The notes below the pieces were generated by a model. That model was not told where the DNA came from, searched no databases, and saw only the letters and a list, made by a program, of their open reading frames with translations. Below, in pieces: positions 1 through 3,541 of a stretch of DNA of 4,832 bases (positions are counted from its first letter, which is position 1; each line of letters begins with the position of its first letter). The stretch is from a virus. Its lineage: Duplodnaviria > Heunggongvirae > Uroviricota > Caudoviricetes. The stretch lies in IMG/VR virus record IMGVR_UViG_2778261356_000007; one strand, written 5' to 3'. The translations under genes and the position numbers were made by a program.

Positions 1-289
1 GTGGCCACTGGCAGGATTTCACGTGACGTAATAACCAGTCAGACAGTGCACCTGCACCACCTGCTGCACGAATAACCCGCTCATCGCTGAAAAATGGCAG
101 TAATGTTTTATCCTCTGCCAGCGGCTGTCGAACGGCAGGAACGACTCCGGACGGCATACCGCGCATGTTTTTCGGTTCCGGCTCCACCAATATTCTGCCG
201 TTATGGAATGCTGACATTGATTCACGGCCCGGCTTAAGGAGCACCATCCCGAGTTCCGGTACCAGAACAGGTCGAAGTAATACCCGCAC
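1..289 (-). CDS. Hypothetical protein, partial (C-terminus beyond left window edge)
   Basis: Minus-strand frame is open from 364 down to position 2 by manual translation, and this frame is not in the supplied ORF track. GTG at 289..287 lies 1 nt after the TAA stop (293..291) of the upstream gene and is preceded by GGAGG (4-nt spacer). The next in-frame ATG is 247..245. Translation looks protein-like (…NGRILVEPEPKNMRGMPSGVVPAVRQPLAEDKTLLPFFSDERVIRAAGGAGALSDW…). No family recognised. Confidence 0.4.
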   Translation of the reverse strand, partial: MRVLLRPVLVPELGMVLLKPGRESMSAFHNGRILVEPEPKNMRGMPSGVVPAVRQPLAEDKTLLPFFSDERVIRAAGGAGALSDWLLRHVKSCQWP

Positions 290-290
290 G

Positions 291-569
291 TTACCTCCAG
301 ATGCGCTGCTGGAATGTGCGGGACGGACGCGGTGGGCGTTCGGAATAAGGGAGCCTGACGGAGATTATCCAGTGACGACGATCGAAGCTGAGATCTTTCT
401 GAAACTCGTAACCACGTCTGCGGTAGCACTGGATCAGCCATTCGGCCTGTTCTTCAGTGCATGGGTCATGCTGGAACCAGTCAGATTTGAATGTGTGAGA
501 ACGCCGCCCGTGCCTGCTGGCAAAGACGGCAGAATCATCAGAATAGTGTAATTTGGTATCGTGCGCCAT
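291..569 (-). CDS. Hypothetical small protein (about 92 aa)
   Basis: Subset of track ORF 291..650. Start placed at ATG 569..567 (MAHDTKLHYSDD…) because the track's TTG start at 650 falls inside the terminator hairpin. Ends at TAA 293..291, immediately followed by the next gene's SD and start. SD for the ATG is weak. No family recognised. Confidence 0.4.
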   Translation of the reverse strand: MAHDTKLHYSDDSAVFASRHGRRSHTFKSDWFQHDPCTEEQAEWLIQCYRRRGYEFQKDLSFDRRHWIISVRLPYSERPPRPSRTFQQRIWR

Positions 570-644
570 CGGTTGTCTCTGCTGGCGCAGCAGGTGCCAG
601 TTGTTCAGGCTGGCGTGCAAATTGTAAACCAGAATGCTAGGAAA

Positions 645-672
645 AAACAAAACCCGCCGAAGCGGGTTTTGT
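645..672 (-). terminator. Rho-independent terminator (hairpin CCCGC-cgaa-GCGGG flanked by A- and T-runs); strong for minus strand, weaker for plus
   Basis: Stem 653-657/662-666 with tetraloop 658-661. On the minus strand the hairpin is followed by TTTTGTTTTTTCC; on the plus strand by TTTTGTC. Carries copy 1 of the 23-bp repeat. Confidence 0.6.
646..668. repeat. 23-bp exact direct repeat, copy 1 (aacaaaacccgccgaagcgggtt)
   Basis: Identical 23-mer at 646-668 and 1994-2016, read directly from the sequence; each copy contains a terminator hairpin. Confidence 0.9.
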
Positions 673-684
673 CAGTACTGAATA

Positions 685-834
685 TCAAGCTGCGTGCTTG
701 CCACTACAACTGCAAAGTGGGATCGGGAAAGGCTTCCCTTTTTTCGCGTGGCGCATTACACCATCTACACACACAGAGTAGCGAAAAATGATCTCACATG
801 GACAGCCACATTTGCGACAGGTACCCATTGCCAT
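685..834 (-). CDS. Candidate small Cys-rich protein (about 49 aa); speculative
   Basis: Subset of track ORF 685..867, starting at ATG 834..832 (MAMGTCRKCGCPCEIIFRYSVCVDGVMRHAKKGKPFPIPLCSCSGKHAA). Seven cysteines including CxxCxCxC and CxC clusters. TGA stop at 687..685 lies about 12 nt before the 645-672 terminator. SD is weak and no homology is recognised. Confidence 0.2.
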   Translation of the reverse strand: MAMGTCRKCGCPCEIIFRYSVCVDGVMRHAKKGKPFPIPLCSCSGKHAA

Positions 835-977
835 GATTTCGTTTTCCCTGCTCACCTGTGAATCCACACAGGTTGCACTTTGTTGGGAGAACCACTACAC
901 TTCGCTTGTCTACAAAAAGTGTTGTGATTGGATTATCTCCATACACTACGGAATGTGTTAGCGCACTTTCCGTCCCT

Positions 978-1003
978 AAAAGCCCTGTTAGCGCAGGGCT
1001 TTT
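978..1003 (-). terminator. Hairpin AAAAGCCCTG-n6-CAGGGCTTTT overlapping the peptidase stop codon; likely intrinsic terminator of the HTH-peptidase operon
   Basis: Perfect 10-bp inverted repeat (978-987 / 994-1003) with 6-nt loop. GC core GCCCTG/CAGGGC is flanked by A4 and T4, so it is symmetric; on the minus strand the T-run is followed by AGGGACGG. Confidence 0.45.
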
Positions 1004-1478
1004 ACATATAAAAATCGAACGACATCTGTTGTGTTCTCACGCCAATTGTTTCCAGTACGATATCCGCAAATGTATCTGCCTGCCATTCTGCATCCTCAAT
1101 ACGAGTAGGTTCTTTAACTGAAAAGTGTAAAACTGCTTTGTGTCCAAGAAGCAAATGACCTAGCTCGTGGAAGATAACAGCAAGTGCATGCTCTTCCCCA
1201 AGGCAAGCATTCACATATATTTTATTGGGAACCGTAATTGTTAGAGAAGCGGGGTCACAATGTCCGATAGTTAGATCATACGTCAGAGCCTCCCACTCTT
1301 TGTCGGTCCTGACGTCAAGAGTAACCCCATAAATTGACAGGCTTTCAAAGAACATATCATAACGCTTTCTTTTGCGCTTTGAGGCTGTAAGACCAATAGC
1401 ATTACAGAAGTTTATAGCTCTGTAGGCTATTTCTTCTTCTTGCATCGGTGACACCCTGTTACCTCTCATTTGATACAT
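1002..1478 (-). CDS. ImmA/IrrE-family (COG2856, peptidase M78-like) zinc metallopeptidase, 158 aa
   Basis: Track ORF. Contains FHELGHLLLGH, i.e. HEXXH at residues 104-108 (nt 1169..1155) with further His at 113 and 118, the signature of ImmA/IrrE-type metallopeptidases. ATG 1478 is preceded by GAGGGG with a 5-nt spacer and lies 2 nt after the stop of the upstream HTH gene. Family call is by motif and gene context only; no HMM run. Confidence 0.8.
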   Translation of the reverse strand: MYQMRGNRVSPMQEEEIAYRAINFCNAIGLTASKRKRKRYDMFFESLSIYGVTLDVRTDKEWEALTYDLTIGHCDPASLTITVPNKIYVNACLGEEHALAVIFHELGHLLLGHKAVLHFSVKEPTRIEDAEWQADTFADIVLETIGVRTQQMSFDFYM

Positions 1479-1480
1479 AA

Positions 1481-1840
1481 TTACCCCTCATTGTTATTAA
1501 TCTTTTGCAATAAATCTGCAAAACTCTTTAGCTGTTCCGGCGTAAACTGCGACTTAGCGAATCCCGCTACAAGCATTTTCTGTTGCTGAGACAAACCGTT
1601 TACTGGAACTGAGTCATTCGCAACTGCCGCTAACTCCTGTAACCCTTCAATTTCTACACCTTTGGCCTTGAAGTAAGAATCAATCATCTTAACCCACTTC
1701 AGAGGTATTTTTTTGCTACCAGTTTCTAAACCGCTAAGAAACGCTGGCGTAGTGCCCAGTTCTTGAGACATAGTCAGAAGAGTACTGTCAGTATCGATCC
1801 TCGCTTTTCTAACGGCCTTACCGAATTCAGTGAGTGCCAT
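1481..1840 (-). CDS. XRE/Cro-C1-family helix-turn-helix DNA-binding protein, 119 aa, with about 50-aa C-terminal extension
   Basis: Track ORF. N-terminal segment FGKAVRKARIDTDSTLLTMSQELGTTPAFLSGLETGSKKIPLKWVKMI is a classic HTH_3 pattern. ATG 1840 is preceded by GAGG (8-nt spacer). Stop TAA 1483..1481 is 2 nt from the peptidase start. Confidence 0.8.
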   Translation of the reverse strand: MALTEFGKAVRKARIDTDSTLLTMSQELGTTPAFLSGLETGSKKIPLKWVKMIDSYFKAKGVEIEGLQELAAVANDSVPVNGLSQQQKMLVAGFAKSQFTPEQLKSFADLLQKINNNEG

Positions 1841-1993
1841 GATTTTATCCTCAATTTGTTGATTTAGCAGACTTGCCTAACGCAAGCCTGATGGGCGCTT
1901 AAATTCTAATTCCTAAAATTTACCATATATGAAAGCAAAGTAAACCTTTTTAGTTAAAAAAATCTCCTTTAAGGGAATTTTTTTCACAAAAAG
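1841..1993 (-). promoter_or_regulatory. AT-rich intergenic region expected to hold the cassette's own promoter and operator(s); elements not resolved
   Basis: The hok terminator lies immediately upstream on the minus strand, so the HTH-peptidase pair needs its own promoter here. Only weak -35/-10 candidates and short AT-rich palindromes (e.g. TTTTTAgtTAAAAA around 1946-1959) were seen; no assignment made. Confidence 0.25.
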
Positions 1994-2018
1994 AACAAAA
2001 CCCGCCGAAGCGGGTTAA
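1981..2018 (-). terminator. Rho-independent terminator of the hok mRNA
   Basis: Same CCCGC-cgaa-GCGGG hairpin; on the minus strand it is followed by TTTTGTTCTTTTTGTG. Plus-strand function is unlikely because the hairpin is followed by TTAAGTG. Confidence 0.6.
1994..2016. repeat. 23-bp exact direct repeat, copy 2 (aacaaaacccgccgaagcgggtt)
   Basis: Identical to 646-668. Confidence 0.9.
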
Positions 2019-2084
2019 GTGCGGGTGCGTTGAGGATGCCTGACACATCAGAGGTGGCGAGGGATTTCTCCCCCGCCAGGTCTC

Positions 2085-2240
2085 TTACTCCTCAGGTTCG
2101 TAAGCTGTGAAGACAGCGACCTCCGTCTGGCCGGTTCGGATTCGTACCTCGCAGAGGTCTTTCCTCGTTACCAGTGCCGTCACAATGACGGTTAAACAGA
2201 TGACGATCAGGGCGATTAGCATCGCCTTTTGCTGCTTCAT
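2085..2240 (-). CDS. hokD: Hok/Gef-family type I toxin, 51 aa (HokD/RelF-like)
   Basis: C-terminal 51 codons of track ORF 2085..2297: MKQQKAMLIALIVICLTVIVTALVTRKDLCEVRIRTGQTEVAVFTAYEPEE. From memory this matches E. coli HokD (RelF) and is very close to HokC/Gef; not verified by search. ATG 2240 is preceded by AGGAG with a 9-nt spacer. Confidence 0.85.
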   Translation of the reverse strand: MKQQKAMLIALIVICLTVIVTALVTRKDLCEVRIRTGQTEVAVFTAYEPEE

Positions 2241-2297
2241 AGCCTGCTGCTCCTTGCCTTTCGGCGCATAAGAGGCTAATCTAAGTGTGCAAGTCAT
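2085..2297 (-). CDS. mok: Mok-like in-frame N-terminally extended reading frame overlapping hok (70 aa)
   Basis: Track ORF starting at ATG 2297 (MTCTLRLASYAPKGKEQQA-MKQQ…), preceded by GAGG with an 8-nt spacer. The extension resembles the MokC arrangement recalled from E. coli, where Mok is an in-frame upstream extension of Hok. Confidence 0.55.
   Translation of the reverse strand: MTCTLRLASYAPKGKEQQAMKQQKAMLIALIVICLTVIVTALVTRKDLCEVRIRTGQTEVAVFTAYEPEE
2254..2282 (+). promoter_or_regulatory. Candidate sigma70 promoter of a Sok-like antisense RNA (TTGCCT -17 bp- TAATCT)
   Basis: -35 TTGCCT at 2254-2259, 17-bp spacer, -10 TAATCT at 2277-2282, on the strand opposite hok and inside the mok/hok 5' coding region, where Sok promoters sit in hok/sok loci. 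Confidence 0.4.
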
Positions 2298-2362
2298 AGA
2301 TATGGCCTCAGATTAATGTTAAGCGTCCTGCAAGACGCATAATGTTAACTGGGGCTTTTCTC
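2289..2362 (+). ncRNA. sok: Candidate Sok-like antisense RNA (about 70 nt)
   Basis: Predicted start just downstream of the promoter above. The transcript would be antisense to the mok start codon and SD (2297-2309), contain hairpin GCGTC-ctgcaa-GACGC (2323-2338) flanked by the repeated TAATGTTAA, and end in the T-rich stretch 2355-2363 (CTTTTCTCT). Ends are approximate. Confidence 0.35.
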
Positions 2363-2416
2363 TGTCTGCCTTACGTCGGCATGCCCGAGGCAGACAGCCT
2401 CAAGCACCCGCAGCAA

Positions 2417-2444
2417 TTCTACTTAACTCTTCTTTCCCCGCAAA
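2417..2444 (-). promoter_or_regulatory. Candidate promoter of the hok/mok mRNA (minus strand: TTGCGG -16 bp- TAGAAT)
   Basis: Reverse complement of 2439-2444 gives TTGCGG and of 2417-2422 gives TAGAAT. A start near 2409 would give an mRNA of about 410 nt to the terminator, with a 5' end complementary to the 3' region. Confidence 0.3.
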
Positions 2445-2530
2445 CCGTTTTTATCCCCAGCGGCAAATCGAATACACCACCAGCGCCACCGCCATTGCAA
2501 TTCCTACCGTTATGAACGCTTCAGGCCAGG

Positions 2531-3046
2531 TCATCGTAAAATATTCTCCTCGTTTATCAGTCCGTTTCGCTTCAGGTAGTCCATCGCCTTATCCGGTAAT
2601 TTGCAGTCCGGCTTCGCTTTTTTCAGTTGGCTGACCAGCCGTTTAACCCACATTGCTAATTCGCTAACCTGATTGCCGGATGCTGGTGGATTGTCGGCTT
2701 TACCCAGAATGGCAGCACAGCAGGCCTCTCTGAGCACCCAGTCAACAGCATCCTTCCATGCTCCTGTTTCGACTGGCGGATTCTCACGCTTTACCTGTTC
2801 ATAAAAGCGCACAGCTTTAACCAGTCCTTCTGATGTCACCGGGACTGGCGGGCCGATGAATAAGGCCTGAATTTCATAGTTCGGCCTGTCGTTACAATCC
2901 TCTTTTGTCGGTACATATTTCCAGTCACCAGCCCACAGCTTCCCCTGAAAGTCTGTAACGTCTTTTTTCACGTAGCGATATCGCCATGCAACTGGTTTTG
3001 CCTGCCCTGCCGTTTCATGCCCTTCCTGATAATTAATCTCGCTCAT
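2531..3046 (-). CDS. Hypothetical phage protein, 171 aa
   Basis: Track ORF with protein-like composition. ATG 3046..3044 overlaps the TGA stop of the upstream 58-aa ORF (ATGA overlap). No family recognised with confidence. Confidence 0.7.
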   Translation of the reverse strand: MSEINYQEGHETAGQAKPVAWRYRYVKKDVTDFQGKLWAGDWKYVPTKEDCNDRPNYEIQALFIGPPVPVTSEGLVKAVRFYEQVKRENPPVETGAWKDAVDWVLREACCAAILGKADNPPASGNQVSELAMWVKRLVSQLKKAKPDCKLPDKAMDYLKRNGLINEENILR

Positions 3047-3219
3047 TCATCGCCCCACTCATCACAATATGCTTCGACCGGAGTTTTTCCTGCTTCATAG
3101 TCATCACGCCATGCTTCAGCATCGGCGGCACTTCCACCACGTAACTCTGCATAGTCCATTAACAGTTCATGCCATTCTTCAAAACTGACGTTGTATTTAG
3201 TTGAACCAAAATCAGCCAT
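3043..3219 (-). CDS. Small acidic protein, 58 aa (not in the supplied ORF track)
   Basis: Manual translation: MADFGSTKYNVSFEEWHELLMDYAELRGGSAADAEAWRDDYEAGKTPVEAYCDEWGDE. ATG 3219..3217 overlaps the stop of the upstream 60-aa gene (ATGGCTGA), and its TGA 3045..3043 overlaps the ATG of the 171-aa gene, so it is translationally coupled on both sides. Confidence 0.5.
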   Translation of the reverse strand: MADFGSTKYNVSFEEWHELLMDYAELRGGSAADAEAWRDDYEAGKTPVEAYCDEWGDE

Positions 3220-3394
3220 TTTGTTCTTCCTCTTCGTCTTTTATTTCGTGATATGAGTAATTGCAGTAGTTAAAGAAAATTTCTTTTGCTTCGTCATGAA
3301 TTTCATCAGGTGTTGCGTCATCGTCCACTTCGAATACATCCTCAAAATCTCCACCGGCTATTCCCGTTTCAATAATTATTTTGAACTTTCGCAT
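3212..3394 (-). CDS. Small highly acidic protein, 60 aa
   Basis: Track ORF MRKFKIIIETGIAGGDFEDVFEVDDDATPDEIHDEAKEIFFNYCNYSYHEIKDEEEEQNG, roughly one third D/E. ATG at 3394. Gene and upstream intergenic region are visibly AT-richer than flanking genes. Confidence 0.55.
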   Translation of the reverse strand: MRKFKIIIETGIAGGDFEDVFEVDDDATPDEIHDEAKEIFFNYCNYSYHEIKDEEEEQNG

Positions 3395-3541
3395 TTCACT
3401 ACCGCCCTGCCGGGCGGTCTCCTGATGTTCTGAGGGTGCAGGAATCCCTCCGGTTAAGGATTAAATTTTATTTACAGTGCTGATTTTAATTATTCAGTTC
3501 TGGATTATGCTTTCTCTTTCACCTGCCGTAGTTCCTGGTAA

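Follow-up and report, generated by a model that had tools for sequence, protein, structure and literature searches.

The question raised by this locus is how a small gene cassette of a temperate phage came to lie between two identical predicted terminator hairpins. The window, i.e., the whole stretch of 4,832 nucleotides that was analysed, comes from E. coli O113:H21, where it is part of a lambdoid Stx2a prophage. The sequence-only reading had regarded the cassette as a moron acquired by recombination at a terminator with duplication of that terminator, and had suggested a Qin-like prophage as its host. The host carries a Qin-like hokD-ydfU segment, but it is not Qin itself. Downstream of the slot that holds the cassette, Q follows after ~1.5 kb and stx2a after ~5 kb; the first gene on this side is a conserved 92-aa gene, and the DUF968 gene ydfU and Q come after it. 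The coordinates of the features are listed in Table 1.

Table 1. Features of the hokD slot and its cassette in the window.
Feature	Position	Strand	Basis or remark
92-aa conserved phage gene	291-569	-	RefSeq WP_024200925.1; phrog_1212 E=3e-36
Repeat copy 1	646-668		Predicted terminator hairpin, cargo 3' end
Cargo-specific DNA of the cassette	669-1993	-	Absent from empty sites; with one repeat copy, 1,348 bp
49-aa Cys-rich ORF, previously unannotated: MAMGTCRKCGCPCEIIFRYSVCVDGVMRHAKKGKPFPIPLCSCSGKHAA	685-834	-	Coding signature
Conserved non-coding leader	835-977	-	Predicted helices, e.g. 950-971 and 850-876
Conserved stem-loop, AAAAGCCCUG-CGCUAA-CAGGGCUUUU	978-1003	-	Fold -19.0 kcal/mol, z -3.7
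ImmA/IrrE-type M78 metallopeptidase, 158 aa	1002-1478	-	RefSeq WP_014640513.1
HTH protein, 119 aa, putative repressor	1481-1840	-	RefSeq WP_001219083.1
Predicted promoter and operator	1917-1957	-	Conservation across genera; putative function
Repeat copy 2	1994-2016		Predicted intrinsic terminator of the hokD mRNA
hokD/sok type I toxin-antitoxin locus	2017-2429	-	RefSeq hokD; Rfam sok; tac/fbi
fbi	2023-2035
hokD CDS	2085-2240
mok frame	to 2297
sok/hok 5' region	2235-2409
tac	2398-2409

An exact-match search recovered the 23-mer AACAAAACCCGCCGAAGCGGGTT in the two + strand copies described before, with a start-to-start spacing of 1,348; the repeat extends to 27 nt if one mismatch is allowed. A third copy was not present in the window with up to three mismatches. 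A chance repeat was ruled out, because dinucleotide shuffling yielded no match in 200 trials and the 14-nt core of the hairpin has a background density of 0-18 per Mb in the DNA examined. Each copy gives CCCGCUUCGGCGGG and then a U-run when read on the minus strand, and forms a hairpin with a UUCG tetraloop. The terminator scan detected copy 1 as a 12-pair stem (673 to 646) and copy 2 as a 7-pair stem (2016 to 1999), and the predicted RNA folds were -19.2 kcal/mol (z -4.9) and -16.2 kcal/mol (z -2.5), respectively, in agreement with the hairpins and U-runs that had been noted in the sequence. The stem of copy 1 spans 646-673 and is GACAAAACCCGC-UUCG-GCGGGUUUUGUU, then UUUUCC, while copy 2 is AACCCGCUUCGGCGGGUU, then UUGUUCUUUUUGUG. 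Judging from the scan and the folds, both hairpins would act as transcription terminators. Copy 2 had been assigned to the hok mRNA, and this assignment was supported: it starts 6 nt downstream of the fbi element, which is complementary to tac at the 5' end of the hok mRNA, and the Rfam sok model matches the 5' region with 113 bits (gathering score 59). The locus contains all the parts of a hok type I system, i.e., the hok CDS, the sok region, the tac/fbi pairing and the terminal hairpin, and the homology with other hok loci stops at 2429.

The majority of the related prophages have an empty site at this position, in which hokD is followed by one hairpin and then directly by the 92-aa gene, as had been predicted. 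These sites fall short of the filled one by exactly 1,348 bp, the spacing of the repeats. Their sole hairpin corresponds to copy 2, and the flank on its hok side is ttaagtgcggg there as well. Copy 1 has the left flank of the empty sites and a right flank that is cargo-specific; it ends the inserted segment, as the sequence-only reading had it. Both junctions are located inside the terminator of the hokD mRNA, so that the terminator flanks the cargo on both sides. Among the loci having both flanks, a single copy was found in 96/96 and 48/48 empty slots. The cassette itself was found in 48 of the 5,426 complete E. coli genomes with 96.7-100% identity, and all 48 full-length copies are in the hokD slot with both flanks; the flanks of the slot are present in 4,629 of these genomes. 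The cargo had seemed AT-richer by eye, and the computed GC was 0.422 for 669-1993 versus 0.515 for the flanks. At third codon positions (GC3), the cargo genes had values of 0.37-0.45, compared with 0.60 in the 92-aa gene and 0.67 in hok. Low GC also occurs elsewhere in the window, as positions 3101-3400 have values of 0.36-0.39. A transposase was found neither in the cargo nor within 16.8 kb, an integrase was not annotated in this 16.8-kb neighbourhood, and terminal inverted repeats do not accompany the cargo, where the sole inverted repeat at the ends is the hairpin palindrome. A target-site duplication by a transposon or an insertion sequence was rejected on the lack of a transposase and of terminal inverted repeats, and on the repeat length, which differs between cargos (16-23 nt). 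An integron cassette was also rejected, since an attC site is an imperfect palindrome, the hairpin here has a short stem without mismatches closed by a tetraloop, and no integrase is annotated in the 16.8 kb.

The HTH-peptidase pair and the predicted terminator of the cassette were found as described earlier. The HTH protein, annotated in RefSeq as 'helix-turn-helix domain-containing protein', matched PADLOC HTH_VI (E=7e-6) and gave no match in Pfam; its homologs adjoin M78 peptidases in Klebsiella and Yersinia. The peptidase has an M78 domain with the motif HELGH (HEXXH), as expected for the ImmA/IrrE family, and matched Pfam Peptidase_M78 (PF06114) with 24.6 bits (cut-off 22) and the phrog_87 metallo-protease (7e-17). 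Its RefSeq start is at 1445 (147 aa). The longer start is only 2 nt past the HTH stop codon, and the 158-aa form is also conserved in a Klebsiella phage. The two genes are adjacent, with apparent translational coupling. Upstream of the HTH gene, 1917-1957 is the sole block conserved in the E. coli, Klebsiella and Yersinia copies. In this block, the imperfect palindrome TTAACTAAAAAGGTTTAC (1940-1957) overlaps a -35-like GTTTAC, and TGGTAAATT (1917-1925), ~16 nt further downstream, resembles an extended -10. The consensus promoter scan of the window did not list this block.

About 300 bp of the cassette had been left unassigned, and this part (669-1001) turned out to contain a stem-loop, a leader and a 49-aa ORF. 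The stem-loop overlaps the stop codon of the peptidase gene and marks the start of the small-ORF module. In four homologs its stem is invariant and its loop variable, and because the U-run is short or absent in the other homologs, the stem-loop most likely serves for weak termination or for processing. The leader shows no 3-nt periodicity (22-26 variable sites of 55-56 per phase) and has 1-2 nt indels among the homologs. RNAalifold predicted 40 pairs from four sequences, 6 of them with compensatory changes. The Rfam search of the leader and small-ORF region gave no family; what it listed at 641-770 was noise caused by the terminator. Two candidates for a further leader ORF, 794-946 and a 62-aa ORF of the Klebsiella phage annotation, were rejected for the same indels and the lack of codon periodicity. 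In the 49-aa ORF, on the other hand, the variable sites by codon position were 17, 13 and 42 of 49. Homologs of this ORF are found in the Klebsiella phage, E. coli STEC005, E. coli SC476 and Yersinia, and it comes after the HTH-M78 pair in 7/8 Yersinia places. The protein has no family in Pfam, PHROGs, NCBIfam or PADLOC, and its matches elsewhere were one phage record and two protein clusters only. Since this ORF has a clear coding signature, the cassette is a triad of genes for an HTH protein, an M78 peptidase and a small protein. Prophages of Klebsiella and Yersinia have the triad too, in different surroundings. By analogy with ImmR/ImmA or CapH/CapP, and with low confidence, the XRE-like HTH protein might repress its own promoter at the conserved palindrome, the peptidase might relieve the repression on a signal, and transcription, once derepressed, might pass the stem-loop and reach the gene of the small protein.

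The same hairpin bracket was found with at least six other cargos in the hokD slot, in a sample of loci that was partly chosen by the hairpin itself, so that the share of bracketed slots in it is inflated. These cargos are three RosmerTA variants, a Fic/DOC pair, a gene for a 130-aa lipoprotein, and a diverged HTH-M78 allele, which is 68-79% identical to the cassette and has a different 5' junction. The RosmerTA cargos matched RmrA with E values down to 2e-155 (1e-102 to 2e-155 for the cargos of loci L004, L005 and L102) and RmrT with 9e-93. In every bracket, the A-run of the recipient is kept in the left copy and the hok-side ttaagt in the right copy, and the inner flanks are cargo-specific. 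The exact repeat is 16, 20, 21 or 23 nt long depending on the cargo, and this variation fits crossovers in a shared hairpin better than a target duplication of fixed length. The second hairpin is missing with the cargos rem and ParDE and at loci L567 and L540. For the Tritos-type RosmerTA, all 41 genomes that hold most of the flank-plus-cargo query have it in the slot. As this cassette is likewise confined to the slot (48/48), there is no sign that the cargos checked move among hairpin sites in E. coli.

We therefore consider, with a probability of roughly 0.6, that 669-1993 together with one repeat copy is a 1,348-bp accessory moron, which was gained through terminator homology in a slot between hokD and the 92-aa gene, ydfU and Q. 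It is a rather ordinary, if well-documented, case of gene gain by a phage at a recurrent hotspot. The most likely route would be short-homology recombination through the terminator hairpin, in which a cassette already ending in a UUCG-type terminator recombined with the hokD terminator. This could occur by a single crossover of a circularised cassette or by crossovers at both ends of a linear donor, and either route would yield the order hairpin-cargo-hairpin, in which every copy combines a recipient flank with a cargo flank. Extended complementarity of the cargo-side flanks to each other, which a circular donor might have left behind, showed no consistent pattern across the cargos by eye, and a donor with hairpins flanking the cassette on both sides was not found in Klebsiella, Yersinia or SC476; the Klebsiella phage has no hairpin upstream of the cassette. 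The bracket would insulate three transcription units, i.e., hok, the cargo and the downstream ydfU-Q-stx genes, and the arrangement may persist because they are kept insulated. Once formed, a filled slot could spread among prophages by homologous recombination in the conserved flanks. Of the earlier proposal, the insertion and the junctions within the hairpin stand, on the evidence of the empty sites, the GC content and the other brackets. The second hairpin may be a duplicate proper or may stem from recombination with a similar terminator already present on the cassette, and a true target duplication is still conceivable.

The hairpin is a generic UUCG-tetraloop terminator of unrelated bacteria and phages, and numerous transcription units of phages have it. 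In 79 of the 81 bacterial loci with the exact 23-mer, there was no homology to hok or the 92-aa gene; this rules out a hok-specific sequence, and in these 79 loci the 23-mer arose convergently. The hairpin core with the A-run was found in many phages among the viral matches listed, and some unrelated viral contigs have two copies in the same orientation. Similar hairpins occur at a median of 5 and a minimum of 2 places per E. coli genome, and the source genome has six hairpin-like places for a 51-nt query. Mosaic joints at the hairpin were also seen in the arrangements hok-hairpin-Z and X-hairpin-92aa, and BLAST joints fall at position 1997. Still, with only ~5 places per genome a chance pairing of two copies is not credible. 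The exact 23-mer has a single copy in a representative E. coli genome and one in a Shigella genome, which favours the original proposal.

The generic nature of the hairpin bears on the explanation that survives best after recombination through the terminator, namely that illegitimate recombination just downstream of the hokD terminator brought in a cassette with its own terminator, which is identical for no other reason than that this UUCG hairpin is widespread and close to optimal as a terminator, and that neither a crossover nor a duplication took place. The independent origin of the 23-mer in so many loci and the several similar places in every E. coli genome make such a coincidence easier to accept, and the homologous cassettes elsewhere indeed have 3' terminators of their own. 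These are at the same position with a CCCGC/GCGGG stem and another loop (ATTAT in the Klebsiella phage and TCAG in E. coli SC476), or unrelated in the case of the Yersinia copies; in the three contexts seen outside the slot, the terminators are other than the exact 23-mer. As the native terminators differ in loop or stem, the exact match with the hok hairpin is specific to the hokD slot. Furthermore, the identity runs 7 nt past the stem into the A-run, and seven cargos with an identical core in the same orientation beside hok are far beyond chance at the background density given above. We consider this explanation unlikely.

A dedicated or structure-directed mechanism, in which the hairpin is duplicated as a target site, is quite improbable. 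It could be staggered cleavage or cruciform resolution with fill-in, or a trans-acting hairpin recombinase resembling an attC/integron integrase or the TnpA of IS200/IS605. Such a mechanism would explain why seven or more cargos have independently used the same few nucleotides in the same orientation, each between two complete hairpins, and a RusA resolvase gene is close to the slot in related prophages. However, the repeat length is not fixed and the repeat takes in non-palindromic flank. None of the cargos has a recombinase, a transposase or terminal inverted repeats, cargos were not seen at the other hairpin sites of E. coli, and selection that favours co-directional transcription would account for the shared orientation. 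Finally, it is very improbable that the filled state is ancestral and that the empty sites are precise deletions between the 23-bp direct repeats, for although repeats of this length can mediate precise excision and would leave the single copy observed, the cassette is found in so few of the genomes that have the slot flanks, the many mutually exclusive cargos at one site cannot all be ancestral, the cargo composition is unlike that of the flanks, and the two cassette alleles have diverged by about 25-30% while their flanks are 90-99% identical.

As an extension of recombination through the terminator, generic UUCG hairpins might serve as portable short-homology recombination sites in temperate phages, so that a cassette with one hairpin could be captured at any resident copy, and defence and toxin-antitoxin cassettes such as RosmerTA, Fic/DOC and the HTH-M78-small-protein triad would be captured with nucleotide precision at the terminator of hokD. 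This proposal is tentative; if true, it would be a lambdoid counterpart of PeSL mini-circle shuffling. With the present analysis, the cassette of this Stx2a prophage has boundaries that are exact and can be tested, and the terminator of hokD emerges as a hotspot, recurrent and precise to the nucleotide, at which lambdoid prophages hold defence and toxin-antitoxin cargo. Should terminators be the crossover sites, this would explain in a simple way how a moron arrives without loss of insulation, and new accessory systems could be sought between duplicated terminators. The analysis also provides a three-gene module common to E. coli, Klebsiella and Yersinia prophages and still uncharacterised, composed of the HTH protein, the M78 peptidase, and the structured leader with the 49-aa Cys-rich protein.

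The concept of the phage moron (Juhala/Hendrix) is reviewed in 'The moron comes of age' (PMC3594210). Like a moron, the cassette is an extra transcription unit present in some of the related prophages between otherwise adjacent phage genes, and it has precise boundaries and a base composition different from its surroundings; a promoter and a terminator of its own are predicted. Unlike in morons, both junctions are inside a pre-existing terminator, so that the hairpin is repeated, and the same nucleotide-level site is used by at least seven cargos. Our search of the literature on the hokD slot and on terminator duplication at morons found nothing specific.

ImmR/ImmA and CapH/CapP consist of an XRE repressor and an ImmA/IrrE M78 protease, and in RmrA of RosmerTA the two are fused. 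The cassette resembles ImmR/ImmA and CapH/CapP in the order of the HTH gene and the M78 HEXXH peptidase gene, the conserved palindrome at the predicted promoter and the location in a prophage, and RosmerTA systems occupy the same hokD slot in other prophages. It differs in that its two proteins are separate and short, and that a third gene, for a Cys-rich protein outside the known families, follows after a structured leader. The matches of the peptidase to the RmrA and capP profiles were marginal (E about 1e-3; for RmrA, E=1e-3 over 40 residues). There is no RmrT and no fused RmrA, and the cassette was not accepted as a RosmerTA system.

In T4-type phages, the PeSL promoter/stem-loop cassettes are short repeated regulatory elements with terminator stem-loops, which flank non-essential genes of hyperplastic regions (Arbiol et al. 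2010, PMC2839356); insertion, deletion and replacement by recombination between the copies, also by way of circular intermediates, has been proposed (PMC2839356). The hokD slot shares with them the repeated stem-loops around a variable cargo. It differs in that its repeat is a terminator only, of 16-27 nt and with no promoter, whereas a PeSL is a composite of early promoter and stem-loop. The slot belongs to a temperate, lambdoid prophage, and within E. coli none of the cargos checked leaves it. In the P2/P4 defence hotspots (Rousset et al. 2022, PMC9122126), interchangeable defence and toxin-antitoxin cargos are likewise found at a fixed position between conserved phage genes, but the hokD slot belongs to another phage family and is located in the nin-like region downstream of hokD.

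Set against the common arrangement, the cassette (669-1993) represents an insertion; its two junctions lie within the terminator, and the site has been reused. The 23-mer AACAAAACCCGCCGAAGCGGGTT was found by exact matching over the whole window at two positions, 1,348 bp apart, and the repeat could be extended to 27 nt with one mismatch. A third copy was absent from the window even when up to three mismatches were allowed, and none of 200 dinucleotide shuffles of the window gave a 23-mer match. On the minus strand, both copies read CCCGC-UUCG-GCGGG followed by a U-run, and both were listed by a consensus terminator scan. The predicted folding energies were -19.2 and -16.2 kcal/mol for copies 1 and 2, respectively; the stem of copy 1 is longer (12-pair), as its U-run forms pairs with GACAAAA, the cargo-side flank. 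The sequence-only reading had described the repeats as two terminator hairpins, as these searches confirmed, and had taken copy 2 to be the terminator of the hok mRNA. The latter assignment is supported by the Rfam match to the sok/hok 5' region (113 bits), by a 5' tac element (GGGUGCUUGAGG) that is complementary to fbi (CCUCAACGCACCC), and by the hairpin starting 6 nt past fbi. Copy 2 is the hokD terminator, with predicted activity.

Features of the terminator-bracketed cassette and its surroundings (window positions)
Feature	Position	Strand	Remark
Copy 1 of the 23-mer	646-668		left hairpin
49-aa Cys-rich ORF	685-834	-	common to four homologs
Leader, about 140 nt	835-977	-	common to four homologs
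Stem-loop AAAAGCCCUG...CAGGGCUU	978-1003	-	stem invariant, loop variable in four homologs
Block TTAACCAAAATGGTTTAC	1940-1957		imperfect palindrome overlapping a -35-like hexamer
Copy 2 of the 23-mer	1994-2016		hok-side hairpin
fbi element	2023-2035
sok/hok 5' region	2235-2409
tac element	2398-2409
Second low-GC patch	3101-3400		covers DUF7167 gene and 58-aa gene

An empty site was found in NZ_OZ501623, in which the left flank, a single hairpin and the right flank are joined as ...ccaggaaaaaacaaaaCCCGCCGAAGCGGGttacgtgcgggtgcg... Window positions 1-2429 correspond there to 1,081 bp, and positions 520-2140 correspond to 273 bp in other genomes; each is shorter by exactly 1,348 bp, the length of the cargo plus one repeat. 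The predicted empty arrangement of hok, one terminator copy and the 92-aa gene therefore exists. Among the loci with both flanks, the slot between hokD and the 92-aa gene was empty in 96 of 106 when the sample was chosen by the 23-mer, and in 48 of 66 when it was chosen by the 92-aa protein. Every empty slot had one hairpin copy, with a point mutation in five. The cargo is AT-richer than its flanks, as had been judged by eye (GC 0.422 versus 0.515), and the GC3 of its genes is also lower (0.37-0.45, versus 0.60 for the 92-aa gene and 0.67 for hok). On these tests, which it had itself proposed, the interpretation of a moron acquired at a terminator holds. The cassette was present in 48 of 5,426 complete E. 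coli genomes with 96.7-100% identity, always with both flanks, and the whole 4.8-kb window in only five genomes, which indicates that the filled slot has been transferred among distinct prophage backgrounds.

The window is identical to positions 2927623-2932454 of E. coli O113:H21 FWSEC0010 (NZ_CP031898.1), inside a Stx2a lambdoid prophage. All genes of this region lie on the minus strand, in the order replication genes, DUF1627, DUF4406, DUF7167 and a 171-aa gene; hokD; the HTH and ImmA/IrrE peptidase genes; and the 92-aa gene, DUF968 (ydfU), Q, tRNAs and stx2a. The source-genome neighbourhood (L001 880-2120, about 5 kb past window position 1) is that of a Stx2a-converting prophage, with stx2A/B, three tRNAs and Q just downstream of ydfU, the gene cut by the window edge; the side away from stx2 has a RelBE pair and dicB. 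The second low-GC patch (0.36-0.39) shows mosaicism of this kind to be common in the region, and may itself be a further mosaic insert within the same operon. PP818812.1 ('Actinobacillus phage vB_Apl-pPE4') matches window positions 1997-3497 (hok and upstream genes) with 92.5% identity. So close a match would not be expected of a Pasteurellaceae phage, and therefore the host assignment or sample purity of this record may be doubtful.

The slot is a hotspot for different cargos, and the bracketing 14-nt core CCCGCCGAAGCGGG is the same for each bracketed one. These include RosmerTA of the Tritos type in phage Tritos (L004; RmrA 6e-102, RmrT 8e-10), a second RosmerTA type (L102; 2e-155 and 9e-93), and RosmerTA placed after rem in ECO_2_R (L005; 6e-105 and 5e-25). 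A Fic/DOC protein with a 59-aa ORF (L098, L237), a 130-aa lipoprotein gene (L505, L553; hok-side copy partly decayed), and an allele of the HTH-M78-small-ORF cassette, 68-79% identical with another 5' junction and a decayed hok-side copy, in STEC005 (L208) were also found. In the last locus (L208 4280-4300), decay has left ACGCCAAAGAGGG in place of the hok-side hairpin, and the annotated Hok/Gef CDS has only 40 aa; this hok locus may be degenerating. All bracketed cargos have the same orientation as hok, and in all of them the left copy retains the recipient A-run and the right copy the hok-side ttaagt, while the inner flanks are cargo-specific and the exact repeat is 16, 20, 21 or 23 nt long, depending on the cargo. 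Some cargos have no bracket: rem in K-12 Qin has the hok-side hairpin only, and the left hairpin is absent from an opposite-strand ParDE pair and two further small inserts. In those locus samples that were selected on the hairpin, the share of bracketed slots is overstated. At L557 (slot of 2,055 nt), the hok-side hairpin of a lipoprotein-type cargo is replaced by cattaggggattcatcag, which we take to be an IS10-like end; it shows secondary IS traffic in the slot.

The hairpin could be a ubiquitous terminator duplicated here by coincidence. It is indeed widespread: the exact 23-mer occurs at 81 loci in 185,579 species genomes, 79 of them without hok or 92-aa homology (Pseudomonas, Methylophilaceae, Nitrosospira and others), and once each in the E. 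coli and Shigella representative genomes. A 51-nt query around copy 1 found at least two similar places in every E. coli genome (median 5; six in the source genome). Among the matches listed for the core with its A-run in viral contigs, many were environmental. Some unrelated contigs carry two same-orientation CCCGCCGAAGCGGG copies, often as hairpin, U-run, GGAG ribosome-binding site and ATG (L261, L306, L348, L400, L407, L438, L442, L454, L477 and others, partly environmental), which suggests an intergenic module reused in several phage lineages. These occurrences mark the hairpin as a generic terminator of convergent origin. Coincidence does not follow, since extra cores numbered 0-18 per Mb in the DNA compared, far too sparse for chance to place two copies 1.35 kb apart around seven cargos.

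About 300 bp of the cargo, previously left unassigned, hold a stem-loop, a coding ORF and, between the peptidase gene and this ORF, a conserved non-coding leader, as seen in an alignment of four homologs (the window, a Klebsiella phage, E. coli STEC005 and E. coli SC476). The 49-aa ORF is coding because substitutions concentrate at the third codon position (17, 13 and 42 variable sites of 49 at positions 1, 2 and 3), and it is conserved across prophages of E. coli, Klebsiella and Yersinia. Its pattern is CxxC...C...C...CxC, and it is unannotated in the source RefSeq record. The leader lacks periodicity and has small indels; four helices were predicted, with compensatory changes in six pairs among only four sequences. 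It has homologs at L006 3126-3300, L208 3124-3300 and L209 3150-3335, and matched no Rfam family, and so may represent an undescribed cis-regulatory RNA.

The 119-aa product is a putative HTH protein from its RefSeq name and PADLOC HTH_VI (7e-6), with no match in Pfam. The 158-aa product is an M78 ImmA/IrrE peptidase, with the motif HELGH, a score above the Pfam cut-off and a phrog_87 match (7e-17). Identification of the cassette as RosmerTA was rejected; RmrA matches were marginal and RmrT was absent. Upstream of the HTH gene, TTAACCAAAATGGTTTAC alone is conserved in every context. These contexts include Klebsiella phage ST13-OXA48phi12.4, in which the same cassette (about 75-84% identity, continuing through the 300 bp) lies in an unrelated place between dinI and sppA without hok, and Yersinia prophages, in which the triad (116-aa protein, M78 peptidase, 49-aa protein) adjoins the integrase at 7 of 8 places. 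The small-ORF module of E. coli SC476 (L209) has no HTH-peptidase pair and lies downstream of hicAB and an acidic 146-aa gene. We infer that the three genes form a self-regulated unit, in which the HTH protein would repress the operator, the peptidase would relieve this repression, and the small protein would be the regulated output, a pattern like that of ImmR/ImmA or CapH/CapP.

The crossovers probably used the hairpin as short homology, because the repeat length varies by cargo, the cargo has neither mobility genes nor terminal inverted repeats, and other arrangements also have a mosaic joint at the hairpin (hok-hairpin-other, other-hairpin-92aa; in Rac-type phages, BLAST joints at 1997). 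The microhomology would exist, since the cassette's own 3' terminator elsewhere keeps the CCCGC/GCGGG stem and U-run with a different loop (ATTAT in the Klebsiella phage, TCAG in SC476). A single crossover between a circular one-hairpin cassette and the resident hairpin would give exactly the hybrid copies seen. Against this, a donor flanked by hairpins at both ends was not seen in Klebsiella, Yersinia or SC476, the terminator of the Yersinia copies is unrelated, and within E. coli none of the cargos checked occurs outside this slot. As a complement to hairpin-mediated crossover, selection for insulation would keep a terminator Q-proximal to co-oriented cargos, because transcription from cargo promoters would otherwise enter ydfU, Q and stx.

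The locus offers a clear case, with well-defined limits, of the known phenomenon of morons in prophage hotspots, to which the present analysis adds a third gene with its leader, recurrent use of the slot by cargos including RosmerTA, and the generic nature of the hairpin. A terminator bracket was not described for lambdoid phages in the literature searched. It resembles the PeSL shuffling of T4-type phages, for which the same single-crossover logic was proposed with stem-loop cassettes and mini-circles (PMC2839356).
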